Below are positions 328 to 39,625 of a stretch of 39,625 bases of DNA, in pieces (positions within the stretch are counted from its first letter, which is position 1; each line of letters begins with the position of its first letter). Origin of the DNA: a virus (taxonomy: Duplodnaviria > Heunggongvirae > Uroviricota > Caudoviricetes). Position numbers and translations under genes: made by a program. The stretch lies in the IMG/VR virus record IMGVR_UViG_2545824712_000011. The stretch is one strand, 5' to 3'. The notes below the pieces were generated by a model. That model did not search any database. It worked only from the letters and a program-made list of their open reading frames with translations, and was not told the origin of the DNA.

Positions 328-418
328 CTGCTCTCCAATGACTAGTCTAAAAACTAGTATTAAGACTATCACTTATTTAAGTGATATTGGTTGTCTGGAG
401 ATTCAGGGGGCCAGTCTA
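1..418 (-). mobile_element. IS2 (IS3 family) terminal segment; element continues beyond window start
   Basis: 381-418 is the reverse complement of the IS2 end TAGACTGGCCCCCTGAATCTCCAGACAACCAATATCAC; followed by IS2 orfA reading toward the window start. Confidence 0.9.
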
Positions 419-13887: not shown

Positions 13888-14772
13888 TTATTCGATTTTT
13901 GCGCCGGGGCATAATTTGTTGAATTCGTCTTGTTTCGCATCAGCACCGCCACCACGTACTTCCGGCTCTGGCTTGATGGCTTTCTTTGGTTTTGGAGCAA
14001 GGCTTACCTGTTTGCTAATCTGCCCCAAGAGGAATGCTGCGCGAATTGGATCTGTCTCAGCGGCTACACGCTGGCGTAATTGCTGGCTCTTACCTAAGCC
14101 ATAGGCGAGTAGTTCAGAGCCTTCGTCTGCACAGTGAATGATGATTTCCTGCTGAATTGGTGGTAGCTCACTAAGAACAATGGCTTCCATTTCCTGATAA
14201 TCTTTCACAGGAAGTTTGGCTGCCCGTTGTTTATGCGCTTCTACCCTTTGCTGGAAACGCTGCTGGTATTCCTGTTGCTGACGTAGTTTTTGTTGCTGCT
14301 GCTGTTCGACACGGCCTTTTTTCTCATGCCAATCAGTCAATGCCTGTTCAAACGCCTGTTCGTCATAATCACACGACTCAAGAGTCGGTTTTGGTGGAAT
14401 AGCGTCTGGTTGTGGTTGCTGATGTTCCGCTGGCTTGGCTAATGCTTCCTCAAGCTGGCGGCGCAACTCACGGTTTTCTTTCTGTGTTTCTTTGAAGCCT
14501 TTGCGAAGATCTTTCACCCATTGCGGTGCAGGTTGCCCGTCAATGTGATCATCATCGTCAGCGTTAAGCTGAATTTCTTCATCACCAATACGCAAGGCGT
14601 AATCTTCTGGTGTCTCTTCGGTTTTTTCAGGCTCAGTTGCCACCTCTTTACCGTTGTCATCCTGGCTTTCATTCTCAGGCTGTGACTCTGTTTGGATGAT
14701 GGTTTCTTCTGCATTTTCCTGTGCTTCAGACAGGTCAATAACCTGACCGTCGATGATCAGTTCGTTTTCCAT
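13888..14772 (-). CDS. Scaffolding protein
   Basis: 294 aa, highly acidic and Gln-rich helical composition, between portal and coat. Confidence 0.75.
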   Translation of the reverse strand: MENELIIDGQVIDLSEAQENAEETIIQTESQPENESQDDNGKEVATEPEKTEETPEDYALRIGDEEIQLNADDDDHIDGQPAPQWVKDLRKGFKETQKENRELRRQLEEALAKPAEHQQPQPDAIPPKPTLESCDYDEQAFEQALTDWHEKKGRVEQQQQQKLRQQQEYQQRFQQRVEAHKQRAAKLPVKDYQEMEAIVLSELPPIQQEIIIHCADEGSELLAYGLGKSQQLRQRVAAETDPIRAAFLLGQISKQVSLAPKPKKAIKPEPEVRGGGADAKQDEFNKLCPGAKIE

Positions 14773-14785
14773 TGATTACTCCTGG

Positions 14786-16912: not shown

Positions 16913-16914
16913 GT

Positions 16915-18327
16915 TTACCAACCGGAGGATGAGGGGACGTATATTTCTGTTTCTTCGCGGACCAATGCCGGGCAATGCATACACATCATCAGCGCATCAG
17001 CCAGGTTAGGAGATGGAATACCGAGCTTCTGCTTCATTTCGACCTTAGTCATTAGCTCCAGCTTCCCGTTGTTATTGAATTTGCGCTGAATCTGCGTCAG
17101 TTCTGCAAACAGCTTCTCCAGCATCTTCTCGCCTATCGCTTCTTTGTCGAAACTCAGCATGTCGTCGGGGTCTGCATACTCACCGTGGACAACCGCCCGA
17201 TATGTCAGATACAGCCTGTCAGCCAGCGCGTAATAGAATTGCGCTCGCTTATTACGGAACACATCGCCAATAGTGCGAACGTTGTCGCCCTGCACGACTT
17301 CATCAGCCCATGCTCCGGCCTGATATGGTGCACCTTCATCGAATGGCGATTCGCTGCCCTTGAACATCGTGGCGGTGATTTTCTTGCCGGAGAACGCTTC
17401 TGTTGTCTGTCTGCGTAGCCCGGCACCAACACCATCACCATCCCACAGGTAATGGTCAGCGCCGTCTTCAATCGCCAGCGAAGTAGCCCAATCAGCGCCC
17501 TCGTTGATGTCCATCAGCAGACCTTCGGCAATACGCTTAACTACCGAACCGTGACGCGATGCGTAACCTTTAGCATCTGGCCCTGTATCTGATGGATCAT
17601 GCGCAGAGACAACAGCGCCTTTCGCTTTCCATCCGAGTTTCTTGTGCGCATCGGTTGCGGCTTCAAGCCATTCACGTTTGATGATTGCCATATCACTTGC
17701 GCTCACTGGCTCACCAAGCCAGATGTGACGATACAGTGTCGGATTTCTGCGTTTGCACTCTTCCATCTCCAGACGGAGAACTTCAGGAAAGTGCGGGTTG
17801 TCGGTGTAGTTCACCGTCAGCAGACAAATATCATCGGGAGGATTTACAACGAATCGCTGATAGGTATCGTCGAGGATGTTTTTCGGGTTGAAGCTCACCC
17901 ATATTTCGGAAAATGGCTTGCGGATGGTTGGTATCAGGATATCCCATGATTCCTTCGTTACCGCTTCCGCTTCTTCCACCCAGCAGATATCAATGCCTTC
18001 GAGCGATTTAATCTTCGTCGGGTTGTTTTTGATGCCGTAGAACATGAACTCAGCATTCGTTCCGAGATGACGAATCATGGAACGCTGAATTTCAAACTCA
18101 GCCGTATACCCTTCACGCTCTATGGTGTCTTCAAGCAGCCGGATTACCGAATCGCTGATACTGTTTTGCAGTTCACGAGCACAGAGAATACGCACTGGCT
18201 GCCGACGCGCCGCTTCAACAAGCAGTCTCGCAATTGCCCATGATTTACCGCTACCTCGACCGCCTTTGGCGACTTTGTAGCGATGCGCCTCAATGAACGG
18301 TTCAAAGATAGGATTAATCGAGGTCAT
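16915..18327 (-). CDS. terL: Terminase large subunit
   Basis: Walker A KGGRGSGKS; 470 aa as in Sf6 gp2. Confidence 0.9.
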   Translation of the reverse strand: MTSINPIFEPFIEAHRYKVAKGGRGSGKSWAIARLLVEAARRQPVRILCARELQNSISDSVIRLLEDTIEREGYTAEFEIQRSMIRHLGTNAEFMFYGIKNNPTKIKSLEGIDICWVEEAEAVTKESWDILIPTIRKPFSEIWVSFNPKNILDDTYQRFVVNPPDDICLLTVNYTDNPHFPEVLRLEMEECKRRNPTLYRHIWLGEPVSASDMAIIKREWLEAATDAHKKLGWKAKGAVVSAHDPSDTGPDAKGYASRHGSVVKRIAEGLLMDINEGADWATSLAIEDGADHYLWDGDGVGAGLRRQTTEAFSGKKITATMFKGSESPFDEGAPYQAGAWADEVVQGDNVRTIGDVFRNKRAQFYYALADRLYLTYRAVVHGEYADPDDMLSFDKEAIGEKMLEKLFAELTQIQRKFNNNGKLELMTKVEMKQKLGIPSPNLADALMMCMHCPALVREETEIYVPSSSGW

Positions 18328-18749
18328 TTTCCGAATAGAGTGCTCATCGGTGATGTTTCAATCTGGATTGCGCCGCCGTCTTTGCCGACAAGCTCGTTAG
18401 TTACCTTGTCGCCATACTTACGGGGATTCATTCGGGCCAGCGCCCATTTGCGGGTATCAACGCGAAGTCTTGCCTTTGCCACCTCAGCAGCATCTGGAAT
18501 CGCAGTGTCAGCAATTTCGAATATCTCTTCGAAAATAGAATCAGCTCGTGCCTCAGTTGCCTTCGCGTACTTGTCTCTAAATTCTTCATGCTCTGACAGC
18601 CAGCGAAATACAGTAGCCTTTGCTGGCATGCCTGGGCGCTTGCAAACCTTAACCAGACTTTCCCCGGAGGCAAGCAGCGCACAGATATCATCAGCCACCT
18701 CCGGCAGGTAATCCGAAGGGCGACCGACATTCTTTTTCTCAGTCGCCAT
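18324..18749 (-). CDS. terS: Terminase small subunit (Sf6 gp1-like)
   Basis: MATEKKNVGRPSDYLPEVADDICALLASGESLVKVCKRPGMP...; overlaps terL start. Confidence 0.85.
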   Translation of the reverse strand: MATEKKNVGRPSDYLPEVADDICALLASGESLVKVCKRPGMPAKATVFRWLSEHEEFRDKYAKATEARADSIFEEIFEIADTAIPDAAEVAKARLRVDTRKWALARMNPRKYGDKVTNELVGKDGGAIQIETSPMSTLFGK

Positions 18750-18828
18750 ATTGATTATTTCCCTTCTGCTTGCTTATCCCATTCATCGCGGAATTTGGAT
18801 GGGTTGTCGAAACCTTGAGTTGCCATGT

Positions 18829-19083
18829 TTATGCTCCGGTGGTGAACAGGTCTAACGCTTCCTTAGATTTACGCACCGCTTCGAATGTGCGGATCGTGAT
18901 ATCTGAATTAGCGCCGCCTGACTGGAAGTGAATTTTGAATAGCTCAAGCTTCAGTTCGTCAGTGCCAATGAATTGAAATGCTTCTTCTGCGGCTGCGTTC
19001 TGGTTCATGACCAGTTTGTAAATCTCTAACTGGAATTTCTGTTCTTCAGTCATGGGAATAATCTCTGCCATTGTTGGCTCCAT
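18829..19083 (-). CDS. Hypothetical protein upstream of terS
   Basis: 84-aa ORF in late orientation, no recognisable motif. Confidence 0.4.
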   Translation of the reverse strand: MEPTMAEIIPMTEEQKFQLEIYKLVMNQNAAAEEAFQFIGTDELKLELFKIHFQSGGANSDITIRTFEAVRKSKEALDLFTTGA

Positions 19084-19375
19084 TTATCCGTTAAAAGGGA
19101 TATCAGTTAAGTTATCCCGTGTAGGGTATAAGCCATTATCAAAGCCACTCTGTAGGAAGTGGCTTTTGTAATGGCAATAAAAAGCCCCGCGAATGCGAGG
19201 CTAAATCCTGGTATTTGTAATGACTGGCTCTTATCTCAACGCAGCCCCTTACCGCGCGCAAAATGCTCAATATCAAGCATCAGCAATGAGATGTTTAATC
19301 TGGATTCACTCCAGAAGTGATCACCACCCTGTCTACAGAGCCAGATGTGAAGGATGATGAGTAAAATTATCGCTA

Positions 19376-19843
19376 TCATCGAAGGCATTGCGTCCTGATG
19401 TATTCCTGAAGCGTTCTCAGTGCTGTTTGGTCGCGGATAATTCCGTCCCGGACACCGAGAACGTTTCGTCCAGCAACTGGAGAGAGTTCGACGGTGGCAT
19501 CATTGCCCATGCCGGAGGCGCCGGAGGTTTCGGATGAGGATGGCACAGGGCATTTTCCTTTGACGAGCACCCTGCCACCATTATCAAGCTTGCGCCGAAG
19601 AGCATCATTTTCAGCTTTCGCATCAGCTAACTCCTTCGTGTATTTAGCATCGAGTGCATCAGCAGCACGCTGGCGTTGCTGCATGTCAGTAATGGTGGCG
19701 GTCGCCTGCTTCAGCTCACTGACTTTTTTATCACGCTGTTCTTTATAGGCGATGGCGTTATCACGGTAATGATTAACAGCCCATGACAGGCAGACGATGA
19801 TGCAGATAACCAGAGCGGAGATAATCGCGGTGACTCTGCTCAT
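19376..19843 (-). CDS. Rz: Rz i-spanin
   Basis: [31 protein letters not shown]... matches lambda Rz; ATG overlaps endolysin stop. Confidence 0.9.
19417..19623 (-). CDS. Rz1: Rz1 o-spanin lipoprotein, embedded in Rz in another frame
   Basis: [19 protein letters not shown] lipobox followed by Pro-rich [11 protein letters not shown]. Confidence 0.75.
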
Positions 19844-24381: not shown

Positions 24382-26847
24382 TCAGAATCCTCCTTTCTTC
24401 TTGGACTGCGGTTCCTCGCGTTCACGGCGGCGCATTTCAGCAGACTGTTGGTCTGTGTCATAAATAGCGCCATTTGCCTGAATGCAATACACCGTGCCGG
24501 TATTGCCATGACGATTGAGACGAAGGATTAGTTCGGTTTCACCAGGTGGAACACTGTCATCAAAAGCACCTTCACGATGGATCCCAACCCAATAATCGCA
24601 ATCCTGTTCAATCTGCCCTGTATCTCGCGAGTCACTTGGTAATGGGCGTTTATTGGTTCGGCTTTCCAATGCGCGGTTAAGCTGCGTCAGAAGCACAACA
24701 ACGCAATCAAGCTCTTTGGCAAGGTTCTTCAGTCCTTTGGTGATCATGCCGTAAGCAAGGTCGTTACGATCGGCTTTCTCAGCGGTCATTAGTGTCAGGT
24801 AATCGACCAGAATCATCCCAACACATCCTTTTTCTCGCTTGATTCGACGGCTTTCGCTGACGATTTGAGCCAGAGATAATCCAGGCGTGTCGTCGATGTA
24901 AAGCAGGTCGATTTCACTCAAGCGATTGGCTGTTTCGATCGCCCTGTTGAAGTCACCATCGTAATCACCCTGATAGCCGTCATCGGCGTCATTTGTCGCC
25001 GGAAGGTAAAAAATATTCGGGTTAACACCAGACTTCTGCCCTACCAGTTTTTCCAGTATCTGATCACCTGGCATTTCAAGGCTGAACATCAAAGCGGGCT
25101 TTTTCTCATGCACTGCGCAATTGATTGCCATCTGGCTGTATAGCGTGGTGTTGTGGGTTAGAATGTATCCGTCAGTTGCATACAAATGTCTCTCGTGGGA
25201 TACCATGATGCAAATGCACTCTTCACGTCCAATATACTCAACCGACGTGATAACAGGCGCACTTGTTTTGATGCGTTTTGCAGTGAATTTTTGCTTCAGG
25301 CGTGGAGATTTTATGTGTGATAGAACCTCATCAGGCAACCTGATTGCGCAAATATGGGCATCCATACCTTTGCGCATTTCTCCCTTATAACTGAATTTCG
25401 GCTCCTGTTTGGTTGTCATACGACACACGCCACCAAGAGAATGCACCAGCCGCTTTACACCATCTGACAGGAACTTGCTTGCCGAGCTAAAGCGCAGGGC
25501 ATTATTTCCTTCAACCCAACCATCGGTTTCAAGTAATCCGCATAGAACATCAATACGAGTTTTCTTATCAGCAGAAAAAATAATATCTGGGATAATTTTA
25601 ATCTCTGACATCCGGCCGTAGATACCAAGCCGTTGCATAACCCGCGTAAGAGATAATTTGCGGCTAAACTTGTGAGATAGGGAGTAATCGCAGCCAGAAA
25701 CATGTCTGACTTCAATATCGTCACCCACTTCAGATCTTACTCGCTCAATGATGTATGGTTCCGTCATGCTGATTCGTGGCGTACCTGCAAGATTTCCATC
25801 GCCAAGTAACGCACCTAACAGCCATGGGCTAATCCCTAAATCAACAGGCAATCCGAAGTCACCGCTAATACCAGGAACATGAATGCGGCTTTGATAGCGA
25901 ACGCATTCCATCATGTCCCGTAGGCGGCAGGTGTCTACAACATCAACGCCACCGGTAATACGGTTACTATGAATTTCCCACAAATGATCATCCGCGCAAT
26001 CAACGGTTCTTCCGTCAGAGAACGTAACTCGGTAAATATCTCGCTCCCCTTGAGGAAAAACTCCAGACACGAATGATGGTTGTCCATCCACTGATGCTAG
26101 GGAATCTCCAACACATACGTCACGAAATGTTGTCCATGAACCATCAGCAAGCAAAATGCGTGAATTAAGCGGTTGCGCTTTCCCCATCTTAGGGCGAGCG
26201 CCAATGACAAACAGAGAGCCTTTCACCAGACCTTTCGGTGACAGCATCCTGTCCAGCGATGGGATCCCTGTGCTCATTCCCCGTTGTTCGCCTGATGGGT
26301 CAAATCGCTTCTCAAGGTCGCTAACCCAGTCTTCCATGACCTCACCAAATGAACGAAGGCCGCGACGCGATCCGGTTTTTGCATGGTCTGTCAGTTGCGT
26401 GAAAATCGACTGAATAGCTTCGTACTTCTGCGTTGCAGTCATTCCGTTGCGGGAATAGAGCAATTCCGTCGCTTCAGTCATGCGGTTGATGGCGTAGCGT
26501 TCCATTGCGGTTTCACGAACCTGCATTGCATAGGCAACGATGTTTGCGGCGCTTGGCGTGTTCTTTGCGATCTCAGCGATATAAGCAAAACCGCCAACAG
26601 ACGCCGTTAATGATTTGCGCTCCAGTTCATCGAAAAGCGTCAGCCCATCTACTGGCTTTTGCTCCCGGTGCATTCTGGTTATTTCATCGAAAATGATTTT
26701 GTGTGGTCGGCTGTAAAATGAATCAGGCTTCAGCATCGCCAGAACTTTCCGGACGCGCTCACTGCTGTCATCATCCAGAAGCAATCCACCAATAACCGCC
26801 TGCTCTGCCTCGATGCTATGGGGCGGCGCATAAAAATTATCGGTCAT
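24382..26847 (-). CDS. Replicative DnaB-like helicase (P22 gene 12 / lambda P position) interrupted by an intein
   Basis: DnaB N-terminal domain (PHSIEAEQAVIGGLLLDD), Walker A GARPKMGK split from TTLYSQMAINCA...KPALMFSLEM by a 343-aa insert, C-terminal RecA-like core. Confidence 0.85.
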   Translation of the reverse strand: MTDNFYAPPHSIEAEQAVIGGLLLDDDSSERVRKVLAMLKPDSFYSRPHKIIFDEITRMHREQKPVDGLTLFDELERKSLTASVGGFAYIAEIAKNTPSAANIVAYAMQVRETAMERYAINRMTEATELLYSRNGMTATQKYEAIQSIFTQLTDHAKTGSRRGLRSFGEVMEDWVSDLEKRFDPSGEQRGMSTGIPSLDRMLSPKGLVKGSLFVIGARPKMGKAQPLNSRILLADGSWTTFRDVCVGDSLASVDGQPSFVSGVFPQGERDIYRVTFSDGRTVDCADDHLWEIHSNRITGGVDVVDTCRLRDMMECVRYQSRIHVPGISGDFGLPVDLGISPWLLGALLGDGNLAGTPRISMTEPYIIERVRSEVGDDIEVRHVSGCDYSLSHKFSRKLSLTRVMQRLGIYGRMSEIKIIPDIIFSADKKTRIDVLCGLLETDGWVEGNNALRFSSASKFLSDGVKRLVHSLGGVCRMTTKQEPKFSYKGEMRKGMDAHICAIRLPDEVLSHIKSPRLKQKFTAKRIKTSAPVITSVEYIGREECICIMVSHERHLYATDGYILTHNTTLYSQMAINCAVHEKKPALMFSLEMPGDQILEKLVGQKSGVNPNIFYLPATNDADDGYQGDYDGDFNRAIETANRLSEIDLLYIDDTPGLSLAQIVSESRRIKREKGCVGMILVDYLTLMTAEKADRNDLAYGMITKGLKNLAKELDCVVVLLTQLNRALESRTNKRPLPSDSRDTGQIEQDCDYWVGIHREGAFDDSVPPGETELILRLNRHGNTGTVYCIQANGAIYDTDQQSAEMRRREREEPQSKKKGGF
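25150..26178 (-). other. Intein (343 aa, Ala1 ... THN) with LAGLIDADG homing-endonuclease domain, in helicase P-loop
   Basis: Insert between GK and T of Walker A; block A-like RILLADGSWTTFRDV, block B DHLW, two dodecapeptide motifs WLLGALLGDGN and VLCGLLETDGW, C-terminal YILTHN followed by Thr. Confidence 0.8.
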
Positions 26848-27727
26848 CGTGTTCACCCTCACGAACTTTCAGGTAGGTATTGTCGTTAAGCAGGAAATCA
26901 AATCCCTTTTTGTGCCAGACGGTTCCGCGTTGATGGTTTGGGCGTTCTTCGAACATCCATCGGCAATTTTCGCCTACGTAGCTCAAATAATTTCTCCAGT
27001 CCTGCATCGTGAACCCATGCCCGTCAAGCTGGCGGGTTATCACTCCGGCTTTGCGCCAGAACGTTCGGATCTGGTTTTTACGCTTGTCATTCAGTGCGCG
27101 GATTCTTGGCGCTTCAGGAAGGATTTCGTGGTAAGCATCGACAACATCCTGACAGCTAACGGAAGGTTTTTTCTTGTCAGACTTTTTGTCTGCTGTGGCA
27201 CTCTCTAATACGTCAGTATTAGAGATATTATTTATATTATTGTTTATGGACAACCGTTGGACAACCGTTGGACAATCTCCGCTGAGAGCCGCGCCATTAC
27301 TGGTGTTTGCGTTGGACAACCGTTGGACAACCGTTGGACAATTTTTTGCCTGAAAATCGTCATATTTAACGATTGTAAACAGGCTAAATTTCTTCCCCAT
27401 CGAGCAAATATTAAGCATCCCTTTCGACTCAAAAGTCCGTAATAAGCTCCGAACTTTGTTGTCGGGGATGAATGTTTCTCTGACCAGCGACGGGCGTCCA
27501 GTTATCATCTGACCGCGATCAACAGTTATCGGACCGATATCCGTATTGACGACAGTAGATTCGTGATTAGCCTTGAGGATTAAGTGAAGCCAAAGATGTA
27601 CTGCCTGAGAGTCCTTATAGAGCCTGCTGTCCATAAACTGGCGGTGTATAGAGACATACCCCATACTGGATGCCTCCTGATGTTGTACAGGGTTATGCCT
27701 GTAATCAGCTAACTTAACGACGCCCAT
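26837..27727 (-). CDS. Replication initiator (lambda O / P22 gene 18 analogue)
   Basis: Position between cII and helicase; contains the iteron array in its coding sequence. Confidence 0.7.
   Translation of the reverse strand: MGVVKLADYRHNPVQHQEASSMGYVSIHRQFMDSRLYKDSQAVHLWLHLILKANHESTVVNTDIGPITVDRGQMITGRPSLVRETFIPDNKVRSLLRTFESKGMLNICSMGKKFSLFTIVKYDDFQAKNCPTVVQRLSNANTSNGAALSGDCPTVVQRLSINNNINNISNTDVLESATADKKSDKKKPSVSCQDVVDAYHEILPEAPRIRALNDKRKNQIRTFWRKAGVITRQLDGHGFTMQDWRNYLSYVGENCRWMFEERPNHQRGTVWHKKGFDFLLNDNTYLKVREGEHDDR
27244..27346. repeat. Origin iterons: two clusters of three 11-bp direct repeats GGACAACCGTT, followed by A+T-rich stretch
   Basis: GGACAACCGTT GGACAACCGTT GGACAATCTCC at 27248-27280 and again at 27314-27346; AT-rich 27341-27400. 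Confidence 0.8.
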
Positions 27728-27875
27728 GTTTCACTCCTGCTTTGGCTAGTCTGTAAACACCAACAAGGCGCTCTGCGAACGCCCTGTTATTTACTGCGGC
27801 TACCACTAATCCCTCAGGTGAATCAGGGTGTCGAATCTCTTCTTTTTCCTGGTATTTCTTACGACGTTTTGTCAT
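27714..27875 (-). CDS. Small basic hypothetical protein (not in ORF track)
   Basis: Hand translation MTKRRKKYQEKEEIRHPDSPEGLVVAAVNNRAFAERLVGVYRLAKAGVKHGRR; stop lies 8 bp upstream of the O-like ATG. Confidence 0.4.
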   Translation of the reverse strand: MTKRRKKYQEKEEIRHPDSPEGLVVAAVNNRAFAERLVGVYRLAKAGVKHGRR

Positions 27876-27909
27876 AATGACTCCTGTGGATTGATCCAGT
27901 CTTTCTACA

Positions 27910-28188
27910 TCAGGCCTCGAAGAATTCGCCGTTCTTCGGGGCTTTTTCTTTTGTCAGCATTCTGGCTACTTTCTTAGCCAGTTCCGCCAACTCCTCGTCT
28001 TCAACACCCCATTCAAGAACAGCCAGAAGCATTCCCATTTTGGGGATGAAGCTGTCTTTCCATCGCGAAATTTGCGATTCATTAATCCCTAATGCATCAG
28101 CAACCTTTCGCTGACCACGTACAGCAATTCGATTCAGGATGTTGCTTGTAATTGCATTCGCTTTCTTGCGAGTACTTGTAAGTTGCAT
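27910..28188 (-). CDS. cII: CII-like transcriptional activator
   Basis: SQISRWK...IPKMGMLLAVLEWGV matches lambda CII core; start chosen at MQLTSTRKK because nutR lies upstream. Confidence 0.8.
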   Translation of the reverse strand: MQLTSTRKKANAITSNILNRIAVRGQRKVADALGINESQISRWKDSFIPKMGMLLAVLEWGVEDEELAELAKKVARMLTKEKAPKNGEFFEA

Positions 28189-28246
28189 ATGTAAGTATTT
28201 CCTTAACAAATAAGAAGTTATACGCATCAACTTATGTGCGTTGTAT

Positions 28247-28289
28247 TCCCGCATTTCGGCGGGAATGAGGACCATGACTGTTAAAGAGC
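28247..28289 (-). promoter_or_regulatory. nutR (boxA GCTCTTTAACA, boxB hairpin TCCCGC-CGAAAT-GCGGGA)
   Basis: Read on minus strand 8 nt after cro stop; boxB identical to nutL boxB. Confidence 0.7.
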
Positions 28290-28296
28290 AATTTGC

Positions 28297-28482
28297 TTAT
28301 GCCGCTTTGCGGTAAGCGCTTTCTTGATACTTCAGGGCGCCAGCTGTAACGACTTCCAGTCGATAGGCGTCTTTCTCTGGGATGACTTCCTTCCACTGAG
28401 AGACTGCTGCGTCGCTAATGCCTAACGCTTTAGCTACAGCACGCTGGGTTCCGAAGTGGTCGATAACATCTTTCTTGTACAT
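28297..28482 (-). CDS. cro: Cro repressor (P22 type)
   Basis: MYKKDVIDHFGTQRAVAKALGISDAAVSQWKEVIPEKDAYRLEVVTAGALKYQESAYRKAA matches P22 Cro as recalled. Confidence 0.9.
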   Translation of the reverse strand: MYKKDVIDHFGTQRAVAKALGISDAAVSQWKEVIPEKDAYRLEVVTAGALKYQESAYRKAA

Positions 28483-28562
28483 AGACTCGCTCCGAAATTA
28501 AAGAACACTTAAATTATCCACTAAAGGAATCTTAAGTCAAGTTTATTTAAGATGTCTTAACT
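28483..28562. promoter_or_regulatory. OR / PR / PRM region
   Basis: Divergent cro and c2; several CTTAA...TTAAG operator-like half sites. Confidence 0.6.
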
Positions 28563-29213
28563 ATGAAAACTCAATTGATGGGAGAGCGCATTCGCGCTCG
28601 GAGAAAAGAACTCAAGATCAGGCAGGCCGCACTTGGAAAGATGGTCGGCGTGTCTAATGTTGCCATATCTCAGTGGGAACGCTCTGAGACAGAGCCAAAT
28701 GGAGAGAATCTTCTCGCCCTGGCTAATGCGTTGAAGTGTTCCCCTGACTATCTGATGAAAGGAGAGGAAAGTCTTTCAAATATTGCCTATCACAGTAGGC
28801 ATGATCCAAGAGGGTCATACCCTCTGATTAGCTGGGTGAGCGCAGGATGCTGGATGGAAGCTGTAGAACCATATCATAAGCGTGCAATAGATAACTGGTA
28901 CGATACAACCGTAGACTGTTCAGAAGATTCGTTTTGGTTGGACGTGAAGGGAGACTCAATGACGGCTCCGGCCGGTCTCAGTATCCCTGAAGGAATGATA
29001 ATACTCGTCGATCCTGAAGTAGAGCCGCGTAACGGGAAACTGGTAGTTGCAAAGCTCGAAGGAGAAAACGAGGCAACTTTCAAGAAGTTAGTTATTGATG
29101 CAGGCAGGAAGTTTCTAAAACCACTTAACCCACAATATCCGATGATCGAGATCAACGGAAACTGCAAAATCATCGGCGTAGTTGTCGATGCAAAACTAGC
29201 AAACCTTCCATAA
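28563..29213 (+). CDS. c2: Prophage repressor C2 (P22 type, LexA-like C-terminal domain)
   Basis: MKTQLMGERIRARRKELKIRQAALGKMVGVSNVAISQWERSETEPNGENL... near-identical to P22 C2 as recalled. Confidence 0.95.
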   Translation: MKTQLMGERIRARRKELKIRQAALGKMVGVSNVAISQWERSETEPNGENLLALANALKCSPDYLMKGEESLSNIAYHSRHDPRGSYPLISWVSAGCWMEAVEPYHKRAIDNWYDTTVDCSEDSFWLDVKGDSMTAPAGLSIPEGMIILVDPEVEPRNGKLVVAKLEGENEATFKKLVIDAGRKFLKPLNPQYPMIEINGNCKIIGVVVDAKLANLP

Positions 29214-29237
29214 GGGGGCATTCGCCCCTTTTTTTTA
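29214..29237 (+). terminator. Intrinsic terminator after c2
   Basis: GGGGGC-ATTC-GCCCC followed by TTTTTTTT. Confidence 0.75.
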
Positions 29238-29254
29238 TTTCCTTTAAAAATCAA

Positions 29255-29340
29255 AGCCAAACTTAAGTTACGAAAGAAAATTTAAGTTTTCTTCAAAAAT
29301 ACTCTTGACCATTAATTAAAGAGATCTTAAATTTAAGCCA
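29255..29340 (+). promoter_or_regulatory. OL / PL
   Basis: TTAAG operator-like repeats; TTGACC (29305-29310), 17 bp spacer, TAAATT (29328-29333). Confidence 0.55.
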
Positions 29341-29379
29341 TCAGCAGGACGCTGGTAGCCAAACGGAACAGATTGGCAG

Positions 29380-29420
29380 GCTCTTTAACATTGATGGGAT
29401 TGTCCCGCCGAAATGCGGGA
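29380..29420 (+). promoter_or_regulatory. nutL (boxA GCTCTTTAACA, boxB TCCCGC-CGAAAT-GCGGGA)
   Basis: Same boxA/boxB as nutR, upstream of N. Confidence 0.7.
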
Positions 29421-34807: not shown

Positions 34808-35608
34808 ATGACCATCCACTTTCACGGCAGCCCAATATGGGGTGATGAGCATGCCCATACAGATATGCTGATTAAAGCCCTTTACCGTGATGGTGGGGCT
34901 TTTGTTTCATTTGCCAGACCAGAGCAGATGAAAAAGATTGCCATGTTCCCTTGTGATATACGCCTTGATAACGGTGCTTTTAGCGACTGGATGAAAGCAT
35001 TAAAGAAAGGCACTCCGGTAGACTGGAGTAAGAGACGAGCAAAATTCTACGACTTTGTTGGGAAGTGGTTCAGCAGAATTGAATGGTTTCTTATACCTGA
35101 CGTTATCGAAGGGACAGAGGCAGAAAACGACGAGCAGATTGAGTTGGTTCCTGATTGGCTAAAATCAAAAGCGGTTCCGGTCTGGCATACCGACGAATCA
35201 ATTGAACGTCTTTTACGCCTTTCTGGCAAATTTGAATGGGTGGCGATTGGATGCTGCGGCCCACACAGGCACATACGCTCTAAATGGTGGGAACAGAGAA
35301 TGGATGAAGTTTTCACTGAGCTTTATATCAATCGTAATTTGAAAGTGAAAATTCATGGTCTTCGAATGCTCGACGTGAGAGTTCTTGGTATGTATCCGTT
35401 CGCCAGTGCGGATTCTACTAATGTTGCTGTTAACGTACCGAAGACAGAGAAGCGATTTCCTGAGATTACCGACAAACTGGCACGCACAGCTGTACTTCGC
35501 GCTGCTATTGAAAAGGTGCACCCGCCATCGATATCAGCATGGGTAGACAGAAAGATGAGAGAGCCGGCGCAAGCCGGTTTTTTATTTGAATTCACCGACG
35601 CCGCTTAA
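34808..35608 (+). CDS. Hypothetical 266-aa protein flanked by 16-bp direct repeats
   Basis: Long ORF with GGGGA upstream; function not recognisable. Confidence 0.55.
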   Translation: MTIHFHGSPIWGDEHAHTDMLIKALYRDGGAFVSFARPEQMKKIAMFPCDIRLDNGAFSDWMKALKKGTPVDWSKRRAKFYDFVGKWFSRIEWFLIPDVIEGTEAENDEQIELVPDWLKSKAVPVWHTDESIERLLRLSGKFEWVAIGCCGPHRHIRSKWWEQRMDEVFTELYINRNLKVKIHGLRMLDVRVLGMYPFASADSTNVAVNVPKTEKRFPEITDKLARTAVLRAAIEKVHPPSISAWVDRKMREPAQAGFLFEFTDAA

Positions 35609-35626
35609 TGCGGATTTCTTTTATAT
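35598..35626 (+). terminator. Hairpin plus T-tract
   Basis: GCCGC-TTAAT-GCGG then ATTTCTTTTAT. Confidence 0.45.
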
Positions 35627-35666
35627 GAACTCGCTACGGCGGTTTTTGTTTTATGGAGATGATAAA

Positions 35667-35837
35667 TGCACTTCCGAGTCACAGGTGAATGGAATGGAGA
35701 GCCATTCGACAGGGTTATCGAAGCAGAGGACATCAACGACTGCTATAACCACTGGATGATATGGGCGCAGATAGCGCATGCAGACGTAACCAATATTCGA
35801 ATTGAAGAACTGAAAGAACACCAAGACGCCTGATGGC
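35667..35837 (+). CDS. Small hypothetical protein (not in ORF track)
   Basis: Hand translation MHFRVTGEWNGEPFDRVIEAEDINDCYNHWMIWAQIAHADVTNIRIEELKEHQDA; GGAGATG upstream. Confidence 0.45.
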
Positions 35838-35850
35838 GGTTTTTTATTGC
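35829..35850 (+). terminator. Hairpin plus T-tract
   Basis: CGCC-TGAT-GGCG then GTTTTTTATT. Confidence 0.4.
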
Positions 35851-35855
35851 CTGAT

Positions 35856-35871
35856 TTGCAGGTTCGATTCC
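35856..35871 (+). other. tRNA T-arm-like fragment TTGCAGGTTCGATTCC
   Basis: Canonical T-stem/T-loop sequence with no upstream tRNA body; 19 bp before xis ATG. Confidence 0.6.
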
Positions 35872-35890
35872 CTATTCGGAGATAGCACTC

Positions 35891-36091
35891 ATGCAACACG
35901 AACTACAGCCTGATTCCCTGGTTGATTTGAAATTCATCATGGCTGATACTGGCTTTGGTAAAACCTTCATCTACGACCGGATTAAGTCCGGCGACCTGCC
36001 AAAAGCCAAAGTTATCCACGGTCGAGCAAGATGGTTATATCGTGACCATTGTGAATTCAAAAATAAGCTCTTAAGCCGCGCCAATGGGTAA
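35891..36091 (+). CDS. xis: Excisionase / AlpA-family DNA-binding protein
   Basis: HTH-like FIMADTGFGKTFIYDRIKSGDLPKAKVIHGRARWLYRD; last gene of early-left operon. Confidence 0.7.
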   Translation: MQHELQPDSLVDLKFIMADTGFGKTFIYDRIKSGDLPKAKVIHGRARWLYRDHCEFKNKLLSRANG

Positions 36092-36164
36092 AATAGCGGG
36101 TAAAATATTTCTCACATCTAAAAAATACCATTCCAATCAACCCCCTGCCGCTTCAAGTAGATGT

Positions 36165-36179
36165 CTGCAGGGGACACCA
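36165..36179 (+). other. tRNA 3' end fragment CTGCAGGGGACACCA (att core candidate)
   Basis: Abuts exactly the T-arm fragment at 35856-35871 to form ...GCAGG-TTCGATT-CCTGC-AGGGGAC-A-CCA; 165 bp upstream of int. Confidence 0.65.
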
Positions 36180-36303
36180 TCCCGCCGTACACTACCGTCT
36201 ACCATTGTCTATAAACCCCATGTAACCATATAAAAATAAAGAGATTTTATTCTCATGACGTCCATTGCCGTCTATTGAAATCAAGTAAATCTATGGGGCA
36301 TAA

Positions 36304-36343
36304 TTGGGGGCATTGCTGGTTCGATTGTAAATGTGCCCCCAAT
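36304..36343 (+). promoter_or_regulatory. Stem-loop (9-bp stem TTGGGGGCA/TGCCCCCAA) ending 1 nt before int ATG
   Basis: Read directly; 21-nt loop contains GGTTCGATT. Confidence 0.6.
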
Positions 36344-37630
36344 ATGTCCAGAAATACCCTCAACAAATTAACAGACCGTCAGTGCAAAGCAGCTAAGCCA
36401 CGAGACAAAACTTATAAATTGTCTGATGGTGGTGGTCTTTATCTTGAAGTATCCCAGACCGGGTCGAAGTATTGGCGAATGAAGTATCGCCGCCCATCAG
36501 ATAAGAAAGAAGACAGACTTGCTTTTGGTGTATATCCAACCATTAGCTTACAAGACGCCAGAGAAAAACGAGACAACGCCAAAAAGTTGTTAGTCAAGGG
36601 GATAGATCCCAAAGCAGAGCAAAGAGCAGCAAAAGCAGAAGAAAAAGGTGCATTCACTTTTGAGACAATAGGACGTCAATGGGTTGAAAGCCACCAGATG
36701 TGGAACGAAGCCCACCGAAAACGCGTACTTAGAAGCCTTGAAATGTATATTTTCCCTCACATTGGCACTTCGGATATTCGCAAACTGGAGGCGATGACAA
36801 TTTTACCTTTGTTTAAGAAGGTAGATGACGCCGGGAAACACGATACAGCCAACCGACTTAAACAACGAGTTAAGGACATCATACATAGCGCCCGTCTGAG
36901 CGGCATTAAGACAGAAATCATCACGAATGATCTCGATGTCCGGTTAATGCAATATGAAACTAAGCATCATGCCGCACTACATCCCAGAGATTTACCAGAC
37001 TTTTTCACTCGATTGGGCAGCTTTAAAGGTAATCCTCTTACCCGCCTTGCCATTGAGCTAACCATGTTGACCTTTGTTCGTTCAAGCGAGTTAAGGTTTG
37101 CCCGTTGGAAAGAGTTTGACCTTGATCGGGCTGAGTGGATTATCCCTAAAAAAAGAGAGCCTATCGATGGTGTGAGGTTTTCCACCCGTGGCACAAAGAC
37201 GGGAAAAGACGAACATATCGTGCTTCTTAGCCGTCAGGCTGTTTCTATTGTAAAGCAGTTGAGAGAACTAAGCGGAAGCTACGATGTTGTGTTTCCGAAT
37301 GAAAGAAACACCAAAGGCGTGATGAGTGAAAACACGGTAAACAAGGCATTACGCTTAATGGGCTATAACACGCAAGAAGACGTAACTGGACATGGATTCC
37401 GTGCCACAGCCTGTAGTTCCCTGATGGAGTCCGGTTTGTGGCAGGAGGACGCAGTAGAGCGCCAGATGAGCCACAAAGAATATAAAGACGTTAAAAGAGC
37501 CTACAAGCACAAGGCTGATTACTTAGAAGAGCGCAAACTAATGCTTCAATGGTGGGCAGATTATCTGGACGCCAATCGAGAAATACACATAAGCCCTTAC
37601 GAGTTCGGAAGGAGAACACGCCGTGACTAA
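36344..37630 (+). CDS. int: Tyrosine integrase, P4 family
   Basis: N-terminus MSRNTLNKLTDRQCKAAKPRDKTYKLSDGGGLYLEV... and C-terminal HGFRAT...VKRAYKHKADYLEERKLMLQWWADYLD typical of P4-like integrases. Confidence 0.9.
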   Translation: MSRNTLNKLTDRQCKAAKPRDKTYKLSDGGGLYLEVSQTGSKYWRMKYRRPSDKKEDRLAFGVYPTISLQDAREKRDNAKKLLVKGIDPKAEQRAAKAEEKGAFTFETIGRQWVESHQMWNEAHRKRVLRSLEMYIFPHIGTSDIRKLEAMTILPLFKKVDDAGKHDTANRLKQRVKDIIHSARLSGIKTEIITNDLDVRLMQYETKHHAALHPRDLPDFFTRLGSFKGNPLTRLAIELTMLTFVRSSELRFARWKEFDLDRAEWIIPKKREPIDGVRFSTRGTKTGKDEHIVLLSRQAVSIVKQLRELSGSYDVVFPNERNTKGVMSENTVNKALRLMGYNTQEDVTGHGFRATACSSLMESGLWQEDAVERQMSHKEYKDVKRAYKHKADYLEERKLMLQWWADYLDANREIHISPYEFGRRTRRD

Positions 37631-38378
37631 GATGACAGGACTAGATGCGTTTTATAACGAGTCAGAAGATAAAATCTGGTTTGGTAATCTGATCAGCGAA
37701 CTGGCAAGACTAAACAATGAAAATGAAAGAATGATAGCTGCCGCTATCTTAAGTAACTACAGATTGAGCAAGACTAAACCAGATACTTTAGGGGGGCTGG
37801 GCTTTTATCAGTTCGATTGGGTATCTGGTTTTACGACAAATGAAGACTTTGAAAAGCAGTGTGTGGAGTTTTTAGGTCTTCTGGCTATGGGGCATGAATA
37901 CAGGGAGAGCCCGATACCGGGGGAAGAAGGGACTTTCAACGTTAGGAAAGGAGAAGACTTTTTATATCACGATGATGAGGATGATTGGTATGGGTCTTAC
38001 GATTCGTTTTATTTCAAGCGATCCGAGGTTGTGAACTTCTTCCCAGAACTGGATATGAATGTTCCAGATAACGAACCAGAAATTGGAGCACTGTCAAAAA
38101 AAGTAGAAAGAGAACAAAACTGGAGAGGAAAAGATACGGCTTTAAAGATGATCGCCGGAATGGCGATTGCCTTATTTGAATCAAGCAAAGATTTCCATAG
38201 TGGAGGAAACCTTAGTATCAATAGGGTTAGTGCCCAAGTAATAGAAAACAACATAATATTCGGGAACGATGAAGACAGCGATACCCACCCAGATACATTT
38301 CGGAGATTGCTAACGAACGCTTTGGATAAGTACGCCCCCAAATTTAAGAACAAAGCAACCAAAAAGCGTCCAAAATAA
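37623..38378 (+). CDS. Hypothetical 251-aa protein co-transcribed with int
   Basis: Start overlaps int stop (GTG 37623 or ATG 37632); acidic, no recognisable motif. Confidence 0.55.
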   Translation: MTKMTGLDAFYNESEDKIWFGNLISELARLNNENERMIAAAILSNYRLSKTKPDTLGGLGFYQFDWVSGFTTNEDFEKQCVEFLGLLAMGHEYRESPIPGEEGTFNVRKGEDFLYHDDEDDWYGSYDSFYFKRSEVVNFFPELDMNVPDNEPEIGALSKKVEREQNWRGKDTALKMIAGMAIALFESSKDFHSGGNLSINRVSAQVIENNIIFGNDEDSDTHPDTFRRLLTNALDKYAPKFKNKATKKRPK

Positions 38379-38534
38379 AGGAAGGATGTTCCCAAATTGT
38401 GCGTTAGAACTAAAAAATAACGCCCAATTTGGGGTAATTCTATTCCCAAAAATTTTTTCTCCAAATTCACAGAAAACTTAAAAAAACAATGATTTACTAT
38501 CTCACATAGTCAAGCAACGTATTACGAGGTAGAT

Positions 38535-38726
38535 ATGAAAAAGTCGCTGATTCGGCTATCTGAGGTTTTGAAACGCACTGGCTATAGCAAGGCGTGGGTA
38601 TATGCTCTGATGAGCCGAGGACAATTCCCCCAATCAGTCAAGATTGGTGCTCGCGCAATAGCTTTTATTGAAAGCGAGATCGATGACTGGATCGATCAAC
38701 GTATAGCCGAATCGCGTAGCAACTAA
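38535..38726 (+). CDS. alpA: AlpA-family transcriptional regulator
   Basis: LIRLSEVLKRTGYSKAWVYALMSRGQFPQSVKIGARAIAFIESEIDDWI typical AlpA HTH. Confidence 0.8.
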   Translation: MKKSLIRLSEVLKRTGYSKAWVYALMSRGQFPQSVKIGARAIAFIESEIDDWIDQRIAESRSN

Positions 38727-38774
38727 AGAACAGAAACAAACAGGATACAAACAATACGTTATTAGGTATTAAGA

Positions 38775-38966
38775 ATGCAGTTGAAACCTACCAATCAAAA
38801 GCTGAACGTAACCCATGTTGATTTTGAAACCTTCGCGGCACTGATTAGATCAGAGCCACAAAAGGTGAGCACCAGCACCAGGGTTTATGATGTGAAATCC
38901 ACCAGCGGTGGAAAAGCTATCGGCATTGCCTCTGGCGATGATTACTTAGTAATAGATCTGATTTAA
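38775..38966 (+). CDS. Hypothetical protein
   Basis: 63-aa ORF downstream of alpA. Confidence 0.4.
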   Translation: MQLKPTNQKLNVTHVDFETFAALIRSEPQKVSTSTRVYDVKSTSGGKAIGIASGDDYLVIDLI

Positions 38967-39047
38967 TCGCACAAAAATTGTAGAGTAATTTGGGGAGACA
39001 GGAAGTCTCCTCCGTATTGCATTTTGGTACAACAGTAAGGGAATAAA

Positions 39048-39242
39048 ATGATTAATTACCTGACCGCTAAAGACGCAGCAGAATATCTTGGCGTCTGTCT
39101 GTCACGCTTCTATCAGTTAAAGCGATATATCCGAAGCTTTCCTCCCTATATAAATCAGACCATCAATGGTCGCAAGCGCCGGGTGTGGCTTGCCTCCAGC
39201 CTTGATCAATTTGCCGACAGATTTCTGGGGGGACGAAAATGA
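39048..39242 (+). CDS. Small HTH DNA-binding protein (excisionase/MerR-like)
   Basis: LTAKDAAEYLGVCLSRFYQLKR HTH-like. Confidence 0.5.
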   Translation: MINYLTAKDAAEYLGVCLSRFYQLKRYIRSFPPYINQTINGRKRRVWLASSLDQFADRFLGGRK

Positions 39243-39625
39243 GCACTCTTACACGCTCTCAGGTCGCCGCGAATATACGCGATATCCTACTAAGTGGCAG
39301 GAAGCTTACCCCAAAAGAGTTTGACGACATATTAAGGAAAGCCGGAAATCACGAACGTAGTCGCGTTTTAACGCTGTTACGCAACGATTGGGGAATTCCT
39401 GTTGAGCAGTTTAAAACAGGGGCGTATCACGTCACAGAACGCAATTTAGAAGCATACCACAGCGATAAAGACGAAACATTGAAGATCTGGAGGACGAACG
39501 CCAGATATGTAAAGACATTGCGTAAGGTAAACATAACGTTGTCGTTGTTGCGTGGGCTGGTGGGTAAAGTGCCTGAAGACACGCTTAGAACTGTTTACAA
39601 GGGTATTGAAACCAAATACCTGTGA
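39239..39625 (+). CDS. Hypothetical protein
   Basis: 128-aa ORF overlapping upstream stop; ends at window edge with TGA. Confidence 0.5.
   Translation: MSTLTRSQVAANIRDILLSGRKLTPKEFDDILRKAGNHERSRVLTLLRNDWGIPVEQFKTGAYHVTERNLEAYHSDKDETLKIWRTNARYVKTLRKVNITLSLLRGLVGKVPEDTLRTVYKGIETKYL

Follow-up and report, generated by a model that had tools for sequence, protein, structure and literature searches.

A candidate regulator between int and alpA of an integrative island in tandem with a P22-like prophage at argW

The last 3.4 kb of the viral genome record IMGVR_UViG_2545824712_000011 (39,625 nucleotides, called the window below) raise a question of ownership. At 36165-36180, a fragment of a tRNA gene separates the final gene of a P22-like prophage from a P4-type integrase gene (int), and int is followed on the same strand by a gene for a 251-residue protein (orf251; its product and the proteins found in the same place elsewhere are called X here), by the alpA regulator gene, and by further small genes. 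Does int belong to the prophage or to a second element, and what is orf251 doing between int and alpA? The original prediction favored a second integrative element in tandem, with an int of the prophage itself as the alternative, and the features it drew on (the core, int, the overlap of orf251 with int, alpA, and the small genes) were all recovered where it had placed them. Our analysis points, with good though not complete confidence, to an independent island at argW that carries an int-X-alpA module, with X as its own regulator.

The junction at argW

The core CTGCAGGGGACACCAT occurs as a single exact copy within the whole window. It coincides with the annotated attP core of phage HK620, and in an alignment with Escherichia coli 600468 it is the 3' end of the tRNA-Arg gene argW. 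ARAGORN finds no tRNA gene in the window, which holds only this 16-bp core fragment; strings resembling GGTTCGATT at 35861 and 36320 were considered as tRNA remnants and set aside, as both ARAGORN and Rfam are blank there and the real core lies at 36165-36180. When positions 35600-39625 were compared by megablast with 50,697 phage records, not one of the 167 matches ran past position 36180. The matches to HK620, Sf6, HK633, N7, HF4s, and Kapi1 all end at that position, with 95-98% identity, so the end of the annotated HK620 attP core is also the end of phage homology.

The gene order of these phages explains the arrangement. In HK620 the order is hkaC (the TorI/xis gene), attP core, int, and attP likewise lies between xis and int in Sf6 and Kapi1; a phage of this kind therefore leaves its int at the tRNA end and its xis at the far end once it has integrated. 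The gene to the left of the core in the window, torI/xis (35891-36091, plus strand), is 97-98% identical to the excisionase/TorI genes of N7, HK620, Sf6, and Kapi1, is annotated as torI in E. coli genomes, and is the last gene of the HK620/Sf6-like prophage rather than a gene of the island. In a four-way alignment, the window to the left of the core is the HK620 attP arm, and to the right of the core it is the sequence directly after tRNA-Arg in E. coli 600468. All 3445 bases from 36181 to 39625 are 100% identical in that strain, in the order yfdC, tRNA-Arg, int, orf251, alpA and onward, without a prophage. E. coli 7/2 displays the full tandem: yfdC, argW, intS (385 aa), P22-like structural genes, torI, core, island, core, csc genes, and dsdA. 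The prophage is thus integrated at the same site as the island, between it and argW, and the core (36165-36180, plus strand) is a hybrid that serves as prophage attR core and island attL core at once, flanked to the left by the phage arm with torI and to the right by the island arm with int.

Each partner is also found alone at this site. A junction-spanning query of 5426 complete E. coli genomes recovered the argW-island junction, with no phage between, in 196 genomes and the torI-core-island junction in 36, at least 25 of them with the full left end and some with int remnants; HK620, Sf6, and Kapi1 end at the core without the island. The left 3.4 kb is present in 240 of the 5426 genomes (≈4%), and all 251 places are chromosomal. 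That int and the genes downstream of it are the prophage's own, forming a single xis-int element as in lambda or P22, might be suggested superficially by the position of int after xis on the same strand across a gap of 250 bp, but we regard this as next to impossible because phage homology stops at the core between xis and int, HK620-type phages carry attP between these two genes, the island Int is only 31% identical to that of HK620, the segment stands beside argW without a phage in 196 genomes and appears in none of the phage records, and the intS of a related lysogen (7/2) sits at the other end, by argW. Positions 36165-39625 are the left 3.4 kb of an independent integrative island in tandem with an HK620/Sf6-like prophage, a conclusion of which we are nearly certain, and the window spans the junction that had been proposed.

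The DNA to the right of the window, followed in relatives, agrees with this conclusion: in place of gtr or tailspike genes it carries rep, cargo, and a recombinase gene, after which the core is repeated. We examined five full copies of the island (loci L001, L004, L005, L006, and L007 in our numbering). Each has exactly two copies of CTGCAGGGGACACCA, 7.9-10.3 kb apart, and shares the backbone order int, orf251, alpA, orf63, HTH64 (a small helix-turn-helix gene), orf128, and a gene for a 350-aa HUH protein. After this rep gene comes a variable slot, then a 58-aa open reading frame (ORF), and then a 208-aa serine recombinase (phrog_125 DNA invertase, 1.6e-40). At the right end, the core repeat is longer and takes in 23 bp of the argW 3' end. 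As the left junction in the tandem has 16-17 bp of argW identity versus these 23, island excision might be affected while the prophage is present.

orf251 and the repeats upstream of alpA

The integrase encoded at 36344-37630 (plus strand; 428 aa from the first ATG) is a tyrosine integrase of the P4/IntS type, transcribed away from the core, with the Pfam domains Arm-DNA-bind_3 (6.7e-29), Phage_int_M (1e-18), and Phage_integrase (8e-17); a longer ORF from a TTG at 36275 is a mechanical call. Its coding sequence runs directly into orf251 (37623-38378, plus strand), whose GTG start lies inside the last int codons (TAA 37628-37630), giving an 8-nt overlap. The string GGAAGGAG is found 8 nt upstream of this GTG, and an alternative ATG is available at 37632, 2 nt past the int stop. 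The alpA gene (38535-38726, plus strand) begins 156 bp downstream of orf251 and encodes a 63-aa AlpA-family helix-turn-helix regulator or excisionase (Phage_AlpA, E 3.6e-18). The earlier analysis had treated orf251 as cargo and suggested a profile search, which returned no named family: orf251, like orf63 and orf128, has no match in Pfam, PHROGs, PADLOC, or NCBIfam, and a profile search of PDB sequences with an orf251 alignment (A3) also found none.

The protein has two parts with different histories. Close homologs of orf251 are few and confined to Escherichia, and in their alignment residues 1-143 are nearly invariant while residues 144-251 have strongly diverged. An N-domain (aa 1-145, plus strand), nearly invariant in the island family, is followed by a C-domain (≈aa 166-246, window 38118-38360, plus strand) that belongs to an unnamed family of ≈80 residues with the pattern W.F.GKDTALMxIAGLAIALEKS..F.RGGKLNKSAVA.AA..AI..YG.G...T.KALT.LI..AL. 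(GKDTALM for short). Residues 166-242 align to the family alignment (A4) with an hhalign probability of 98% (E 8.5e-14) and are matched by hmmsearch too; compared with Pfam at E values up to 10, the family gives no consistent match. An exhaustive profile search yielded 30 representatives in which N- and C-terminal halves occur in differing combinations, that is, with domain shuffling. An AlphaFold2 model of orf251 built from 22 diverse sequences reached a pLDDT of 82.7, and one built from six near-identical sequences (pLDDT 40) was unusable.

The C-domain profile, scanned over one genome per species, led to seven loci outside the island family, in Pantoea, an Enterobacterales metagenome-assembled genome, Mangrovibacter, Leclercia, Pseudocitrobacter, Escherichia sp., and Rahnella. 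At all seven, X lies between a P4-type int (34-37% identical to that of the island) and alpA (40-74% identical), on the same strand, and the module sits immediately downstream of a tRNA-Arg, tRNA-Thr, tRNA-Gly, or tmRNA gene. The int-X-alpA order is found again in L022, L024, and L026; L025 shows int-X before the contig ends, and in L024 X overlaps int by the same 8 nt. Because this order recurs beside tRNA and tmRNA genes across Enterobacterales, orf251 is on comparative grounds a backbone gene and not cargo, and the variable slot of the island is instead the one that follows rep and precedes the serine recombinase. In other E. coli islands, with an ≈70%-identical alpA, the place between int and alpA is taken by a DUF6387 protein (L017, L021), by a 265-aa protein whose C-domain is unrelated (L019, L020), or by nothing (L018). 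The DUF6387 genes (L017:2907-3788 and L021:2827-3672, in PICI-like islands [PICI, phage-inducible chromosomal island] at the tRNA-Thr by proA and near ypjA) are followed by inverted repeats of their own. DUF6387 proteins and the class-D C-domain are not homologous to the orf251 C-domain family, and DUF6387 may be a functional counterpart of orf251.

The divergence of X does not stop at the end of its coding sequence. A hypervariable cassette at 38025-38470 (plus strand), comprising the DNA that encodes the X C-domain together with the repeats that precede the alpA promoter, has only 37-72% DNA identity to L005-L007. Its flanks are 90-100% identical to the same loci, and identity returns to 98-100% from ≈38480, just downstream of the alpA -35 element (38466-38471), so that the cassette borders are the X domain border and the alpA -35. 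The predicted promoter itself, TTCACA-16-AATGAT at 38466-38493 (plus strand), is a consensus match only and lies in conserved DNA just past the cassette. Within the cassette, a cluster of CCCAAATT-type repeats spans 38336-38468, with copies at 38336-38344, 38390-38398, 38426-38434 (minus strand), 38443-38451, and 38459-38468, and includes a 16-nt inverted repeat (38391-38406 / 38418-38433). Allowing one mismatch, TCCCAAATT has six matches window-wide, three of them within these 100 bp. An extra CCCCAAATT copy lies at 38987-38995 (minus strand), in the spacer upstream of the 64-aa helix-turn-helix gene. The inverted repeat at 38391-38433 was also considered as a terminator and rejected, its stem being AT-rich and the T-run 20 nt away.

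Spacers between X and alpA always carry clustered short repeats, and the class of repeat follows the C-domain of X. Canonical GKDTALM C-domains accompany two to five copies of ACTTCCA(A) (L008-L014, with L009 assigned through an X near-identical to that of L008 and its spacer not listed); the C-domain type of the window, shared with L005, accompanies four to five copies of the CCCAAATT-type repeat, CCCAAAT(T), including the 16-nt inverted repeat; the L006/L007 type accompanies three ATTACCAAAC-type copies; and the unrelated C-domain of L019 and L020 accompanies four to six copies of ACCCTNAGGGT, ACCCT(G/T)AGGGT. Three loci, L022, L024, and L026, were fetched only after this rule had been stated, and all three had the repeat class predicted from the X C-domain. 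L026 joins an orf251-like N-domain to a GKDTALM C-domain and has three copies of ACTTCCAAA; L022 joins an orf251-like N-domain to the unrelated C-domain and has TACCCTNA repeats; L024, with the closest orf251 homolog, has CCCAAAT/CCCAATTT repeats. In all, ACTTCCA(A) accompanies the GKDTALM type at eight loci, CCCAAAT(T) is found in the window, L005, and L024, and ACCCTNAGGGT in L019, L020, and L022. AlpA does not track the repeats in this way. The AlpA protein is identical in the window, L005, L006, and L007, although the repeats of L006 and L007 are not those of the window and L005. The AlpA proteins of L011 (ACTTCCA) and L019/L020 (ACCCTNAGGGT) have 82-84% identity and the RTGYSKAWIYRL helix in common, and those of L011 and L014, which both have ACTTCCA, show only 40% identity. 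As the repeat class follows the X C-domain and not AlpA, we infer that X regulates the alpA promoter. The three repeat classes of the homologous C-domains share a CCAAA core, as expected from diverging specificities of one DNA-binding fold. On balance, we lean toward X being a backbone regulator that acts on the repeats upstream of alpA.

Several points weigh against this assignment. The shared CCAAA core might be recognized by a single other protein, and because the X C-domain coding region and the repeats are adjacent, co-inheritance by linkage could give part of the correlation. In PICMI115, one of the PICMIs (phage-inducible chromosomal minimalist islands) of Vibrionaceae, the gene iolg overlaps int, lies between int and alpA, and is essential for excision, which its deletion abolishes (PMC10803314). 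This phenotype is unlike that of a simple repressor and, by analogy, would better fit a cue-dependent activator or an excision cofactor. More generally, the functional claims made here on X and the island draw on comparative sequence data.

The strongest competing explanation is that the repeats upstream of alpA are sites of AlpA autoregulation or of a host factor and that X is an accessory or excision cofactor or an anti-phage gene. In EcCICFT073 and EcCIMP1, AlpA is an activator of the alpA promoter (PMC6092414, PMC11773190), three of the repeat classes have a CCAAA core in common, the PICMI IOLG protein has been proposed as part of the excision complex (PMC10803314), and the int-alpA slot of EcCIMP1 has been treated as an accessory gene (PMC11773190). 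Autoregulation is nevertheless difficult to reconcile with identical or closely similar AlpA proteins, with the same helix-turn-helix helix, standing behind unrelated repeats, with 40%-identical proteins standing behind the same class, and with the three correct predictions made from X; an anti-phage role finds no match in PADLOC. We consider this explanation doubtful and retain X as the candidate regulator.

The whole island and its class

The slot between rep and the 58-aa ORF differs in content among all five copies examined. L004 carries a SIR2 + STAND NTPase protein (17273-19753, minus strand), L006 an 858-aa ATPase that PADLOC identifies as PDC-S06 over its full length (E = 0; 14495-17071, plus strand), L005 a GTPase-like pair (14494-15771, minus strand), L007 a 470-aa protein of no assigned function (14233-15645, minus strand), and L001 two more such proteins of 821 and 330 aa (25934-29388, minus strand). 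The 470-, 821-, and 330-aa proteins have no match in the defence databases and are candidate new defence genes. The 350-aa HUH protein matches REP_ORF2-G2P (PF23343, 7e-7) and contains the HUH motif HVHAII and the Y motif IDYMAKP; its gene begins 69 bp after orf128, as seen in L004. In the copy that continues beyond the window, the HUH rep gene 69 bp on, cargo, a serine recombinase, and TTCGATTCCTGCAGGGGACACCA are expected within ≈5-7 kb.

We next consider what kind of element this is. It has its own site-specific recombinase, a P4-type Int, beside the att core, and direct repeats of the target core bound it in L001 and L004-L007. The original prediction compared it to a P4-like satellite or a Gram-negative PICI, and that comparison holds in part. 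The integrase is of the P4 family by all three of its domains, and the inward int, with AlpA after it on that strand, makes up the Gram-negative PICI integration zone, an arrangement reported as a signature that sets Gram-negative PICIs and phage satellites apart from prophages (PMC10111431). Moreover, Kapi1, an HK620-like argW phage among the phage matches here, has been proven by experiment to act as helper for a PICI (PMC11773190). What does not hold is the rest of the gene content. The full copies contain no primase domains (alpha primase-helicase or pri-rep), their sole replication gene being that of the 350-aa HUH protein, and no capsid, terS, or other packaging-redirection genes follow rep, where only defence-type cargo, the 58-aa ORF, and the serine recombinase are found. 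None of the scanned backbone proteins matches capsid-size or late-control genes of the sid, psu, or delta type; the argW island has no Bro/AntA zone; and Rfam reports nothing on 35500-39625, including no C4 or isrK (the P4-type immunity RNA). As it carries neither a primase nor genes for capsid or packaging functions, the island is not a P4-like satellite or a canonical PICI.

By position, the island does have the PICMI arrangement of int, an int-overlapping gene, and alpA (here with the 8-nt overlap), and it shares the small size (7.9-10.3 kb), the absence of capsid-remodeling genes, and a defence hotspot by att (PDC-S06, SIR2-STAND, the GTPase pair, and the unclassified proteins). It lacks the primase, the fis site, and the Vibrionaceae host, having an HUH Rep, argW, and Escherichia instead. 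Where int-X-alpA occurs in another genus or at a different E. coli tRNA site, the islands encode D5_N or DUF927/Toprim primases together with Bro-N, AntA, Ash, or Icd-like genes and look like PICI or P4-like elements. The argW island itself appears to be an unnamed variant of the PICI/PICMI kind, with the Vibrio PICMI as its nearest described architecture. In the literature, we found nothing specific to an AlpA-bearing island at argW, to a defence hotspot, or to a satellite in tandem.

Whether the island is a phage satellite is a narrower question, and we put this forward only tentatively. The PICI- or P4-like islands that share int-X-alpA and the helper role of Kapi1 speak for it. Against it stand the absence of primase and packaging genes and, in the window part, of a P4-type immunity RNA, and the lack of any sequence common to the island and the adjacent prophage beyond the core; a search of the two for a shared pac-like sequence gave only chance 13-14-mers. 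Two further points bear on the island reading as a whole. The window ends before the right part of this island copy, and the Rep ORF is 350 aa long in L004 (15514-16566) and 285 or 215 aa in L001 (24278-25135), L005 (12905-13552), and L007 (12914-13561); these short ORFs may reflect frameshifts or alternative starts, and the ability to replicate is possibly partly decayed.

An integrative mobilizable element, in which the HUH protein acts as a relaxase at an origin of transfer with the help of a co-resident conjugative system, would account for the HUH and Y motifs, for a weak match of the HUH protein to the MobA/VirD2 relaxase nuclease domain (E 0.0098, below threshold), for the lack of phage-interaction or packaging genes, and for the absence of the island from phage collections, where no record matches it in a nucleotide search and none matches its Rep at the protein level. 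The rolling-circle replication initiator family REP_ORF2-G2P is, however, the better match. The int-inward and AlpA zone is also reported as a phage-satellite signature (PMC10111431), PICI-type primases are found in all the int-X-alpA relatives alongside Bro, AntA, Ash, or Icd genes, and there are no plasmid copies among the 251 places. We judge this explanation unlikely. A decaying, immobile remnant occupying the argW site is less probable still. Shortened Rep ORFs in some copies, insertion sequences in a few (H87, H94), and genomes that keep just 140-860 bp of the int 5' end by dsdC (H107, H109, H110) are in its favor, yet the five copies examined have every backbone ORF intact and retain both core repeats, and the backbone is 96-100% identical while the cargo differs. 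The near-identical backbone, the differing cargo, and the copy in Escherichia albertii together point to recent horizontal spread and cassette exchange.

The E. albertii copy is on a contig of NBRC 107761 (L015, 1-3164), where orf251, AlpA, orf63, and orf128 are 100% identical to those of the island, HTH64 is 98% identical, and Rep is 97% identical. A backbone identical at 97-100% (five of six at 100% by one of our counts, four by the list just given) implies recent interspecies transfer. The int fragments form a set of their own: in H107, H109, H110, H124, and H127-H129, only 140-860 bp of the island int 5' end remain, fused to the region of the LysR regulator gene (dsdC) and sometimes behind torI. 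These fragments at the argW-dsd locus look like scars of island loss or deletion.

The remaining features of the window fall on either side of the core. The island left arm (36181-36343, plus strand), with candidate arm-type sites and the int promoter, is 100% identical to the DNA directly downstream of argW in strain 600468, and int starts 164 bp from the core. The arm contains CCGTCTA at 36195 and 36268, GGGGCA repeats at 36296-36312 with an inverted copy at 36334-36343 (GGGGCAC copies are present in the island right arm too), and a promoter-like TTGAAA-18-CATAAT at 36275-36304, again a consensus match only. A perfect 10-nt inverted repeat, ATTGGGGGCA/TGCCCCCAAT (36303-36343, with 21 nt between its arms), overlaps the GGGGCA repeats and ends right before the int ATG, which has no obvious Shine-Dalgarno sequence; the inverted repeat could couple Int binding to int translation or transcription. 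Downstream of alpA are orf63 (38775-38966, plus strand; 63 aa), a backbone gene of no family that is conserved in all island copies; the 64-aa HTH_17/excisionase-like DNA-binding protein gene (39048-39242, plus strand), whose HTH_17 match (E 5.6e-5, 23.8 bits) is below the gathering score of 27, whose TIGR01764 excise match is weak, and which RefSeq annotates as DNA-binding or MerR family; and orf128 (39239-39625, plus strand; 128 aa), a backbone gene of no family whose stop is the last codon of the window. On the phage side, the torI stop is spanned by a tandem GGGTAAAATA repeat (36086-36107, two copies at 12-nt spacing), which HK620 also conserves and which is a possible arm site for TorI or Int in the phage attP. 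Of the prophage tailspike gene (403-2217, minus strand), only the N-terminal, head-binding part (from ≈1871) has a match of 96-99% in the best complete E. coli genomes; the part for receptor binding (≈403-1870) lies outside the top matches to complete E. coli genomes, which suggests that the tailspike specificity is rare.

Related systems and a proposed role for X

The closest described analogs are the PICMIs of Vibrionaceae, represented by PICMI115 (Barcia-Cruz et al. 2024), which are packaged as rolling-circle concatemers (PMC10803314). Like them, the argW island is small and has int, a gene that overlaps the int stop (iolg in PICMIs), alpA, a small gene of no assigned function, a replication gene, and a variable defence slot by the far att, without capsid-remodeling or packaging genes; the likeness of orf251 to iolg is one of position only. 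PICMIs differ in having a primase, a site downstream of fis, a Vibrionaceae host, and a size of ≈6 kb, whereas the argW island has an HUH rolling-circle Rep, the tRNA gene argW of Escherichia as its site, a size of 8-10 kb, and a serine recombinase at its end. With the Gram-negative PICIs such as EcCICFT073 and EcCIMP1 (PMC6092414, PMC11773190, PMC10111431), it shares an inward P4-type int that adjoins an att of tRNA origin and has AlpA after it on the same strand. Its AlpA is 65-83% identical to that of primase-bearing PICI-like islands, many of which also have a gene in the int-alpA slot. Unlike the Gram-negative PICIs, the argW island is smaller, has an HUH-type Rep, and lacks any primase or pri-rep as well as the Bro/AntA and late (capsid or packaging) zones.

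A third comparison is with the IntS-TorI module of KplE1/CPS-53 and HK620/Sf6, which has the same argW attB core, a P4-family arm-binding Int directed away from the core, and a small AlpA/TorI-like helix-turn-helix protein. The island differs in its distant Int, in its unrelated arms, and in not being a phage; moreover, its gene resembling a recombination directionality factor lies 0.9 kb downstream of int at the same element end, whereas in the IntS-TorI module the corresponding gene is at the opposite end. A similar layout of int, one gene, and alpA beside a tRNA-like gene occurs in CP4-57 at ssrA of E. coli K-12, with the order intA-yfjH-alpA, and the Rahnella relative of our module (L014) is at a tmRNA gene as well. 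YfjH of CP4-57 has its gene on the opposite strand and is not known to be related, and CP4-57 is a 22-kb cryptic prophage-like element.

Taken together, these comparisons lead us to propose the following scheme. The int and X genes would be co-transcribed from the left-arm promoter (36275-36304) and translationally coupled. The C-terminal domain of X would bind the repeats just upstream of and overlapping the alpA -35 and thereby set alpA expression, acting either as a repressor, which would parallel Stl, or as a cue-dependent activator. AlpA and Int would then drive excision, and the HUH Rep would amplify the circle. Transfer would depend on a helper phage, through headful packaging of concatemers as in PICMIs, or on a conjugative helper. 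For PICMI115, the view is that int and iolg are expressed constitutively, with alpA as the inducible switch (PMC10803314). A more speculative extension is that X is the missing input device of AlpA-controlled Enterobacterales satellites, with an exchangeable C-domain that docks on cognate repeats at the alpA promoter and an exchangeable N-domain that senses a helper-phage cue. If so, the swapped cassette at 38025-38470 would set signal and operator for each island, and X would be functionally analogous to the Stl repressors of Gram-positive PICIs, with unrelated folds.

For annotation, the tandem means that prophage callers would merge the island with the P22-like prophage, whereas the true boundary is the 16-bp core and the phage int lies at the other end. 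For the biology of Escherichia, it reveals an island family in ≈4% of complete E. coli genomes and in E. albertii with a swappable slot that holds known or candidate anti-phage genes (PDC-S06, SIR2-STAND), and hence a vehicle for moving defence genes that is neither P4-like nor a canonical PICI. The discussion in PMC10803314 leaves open by what means alpA of Gram-negative satellites is turned on by helper phages. An X gene coupled to int and accompanied by its cognate repeats may provide a concrete candidate, drawn from comparative data, for how alpA is switched on.

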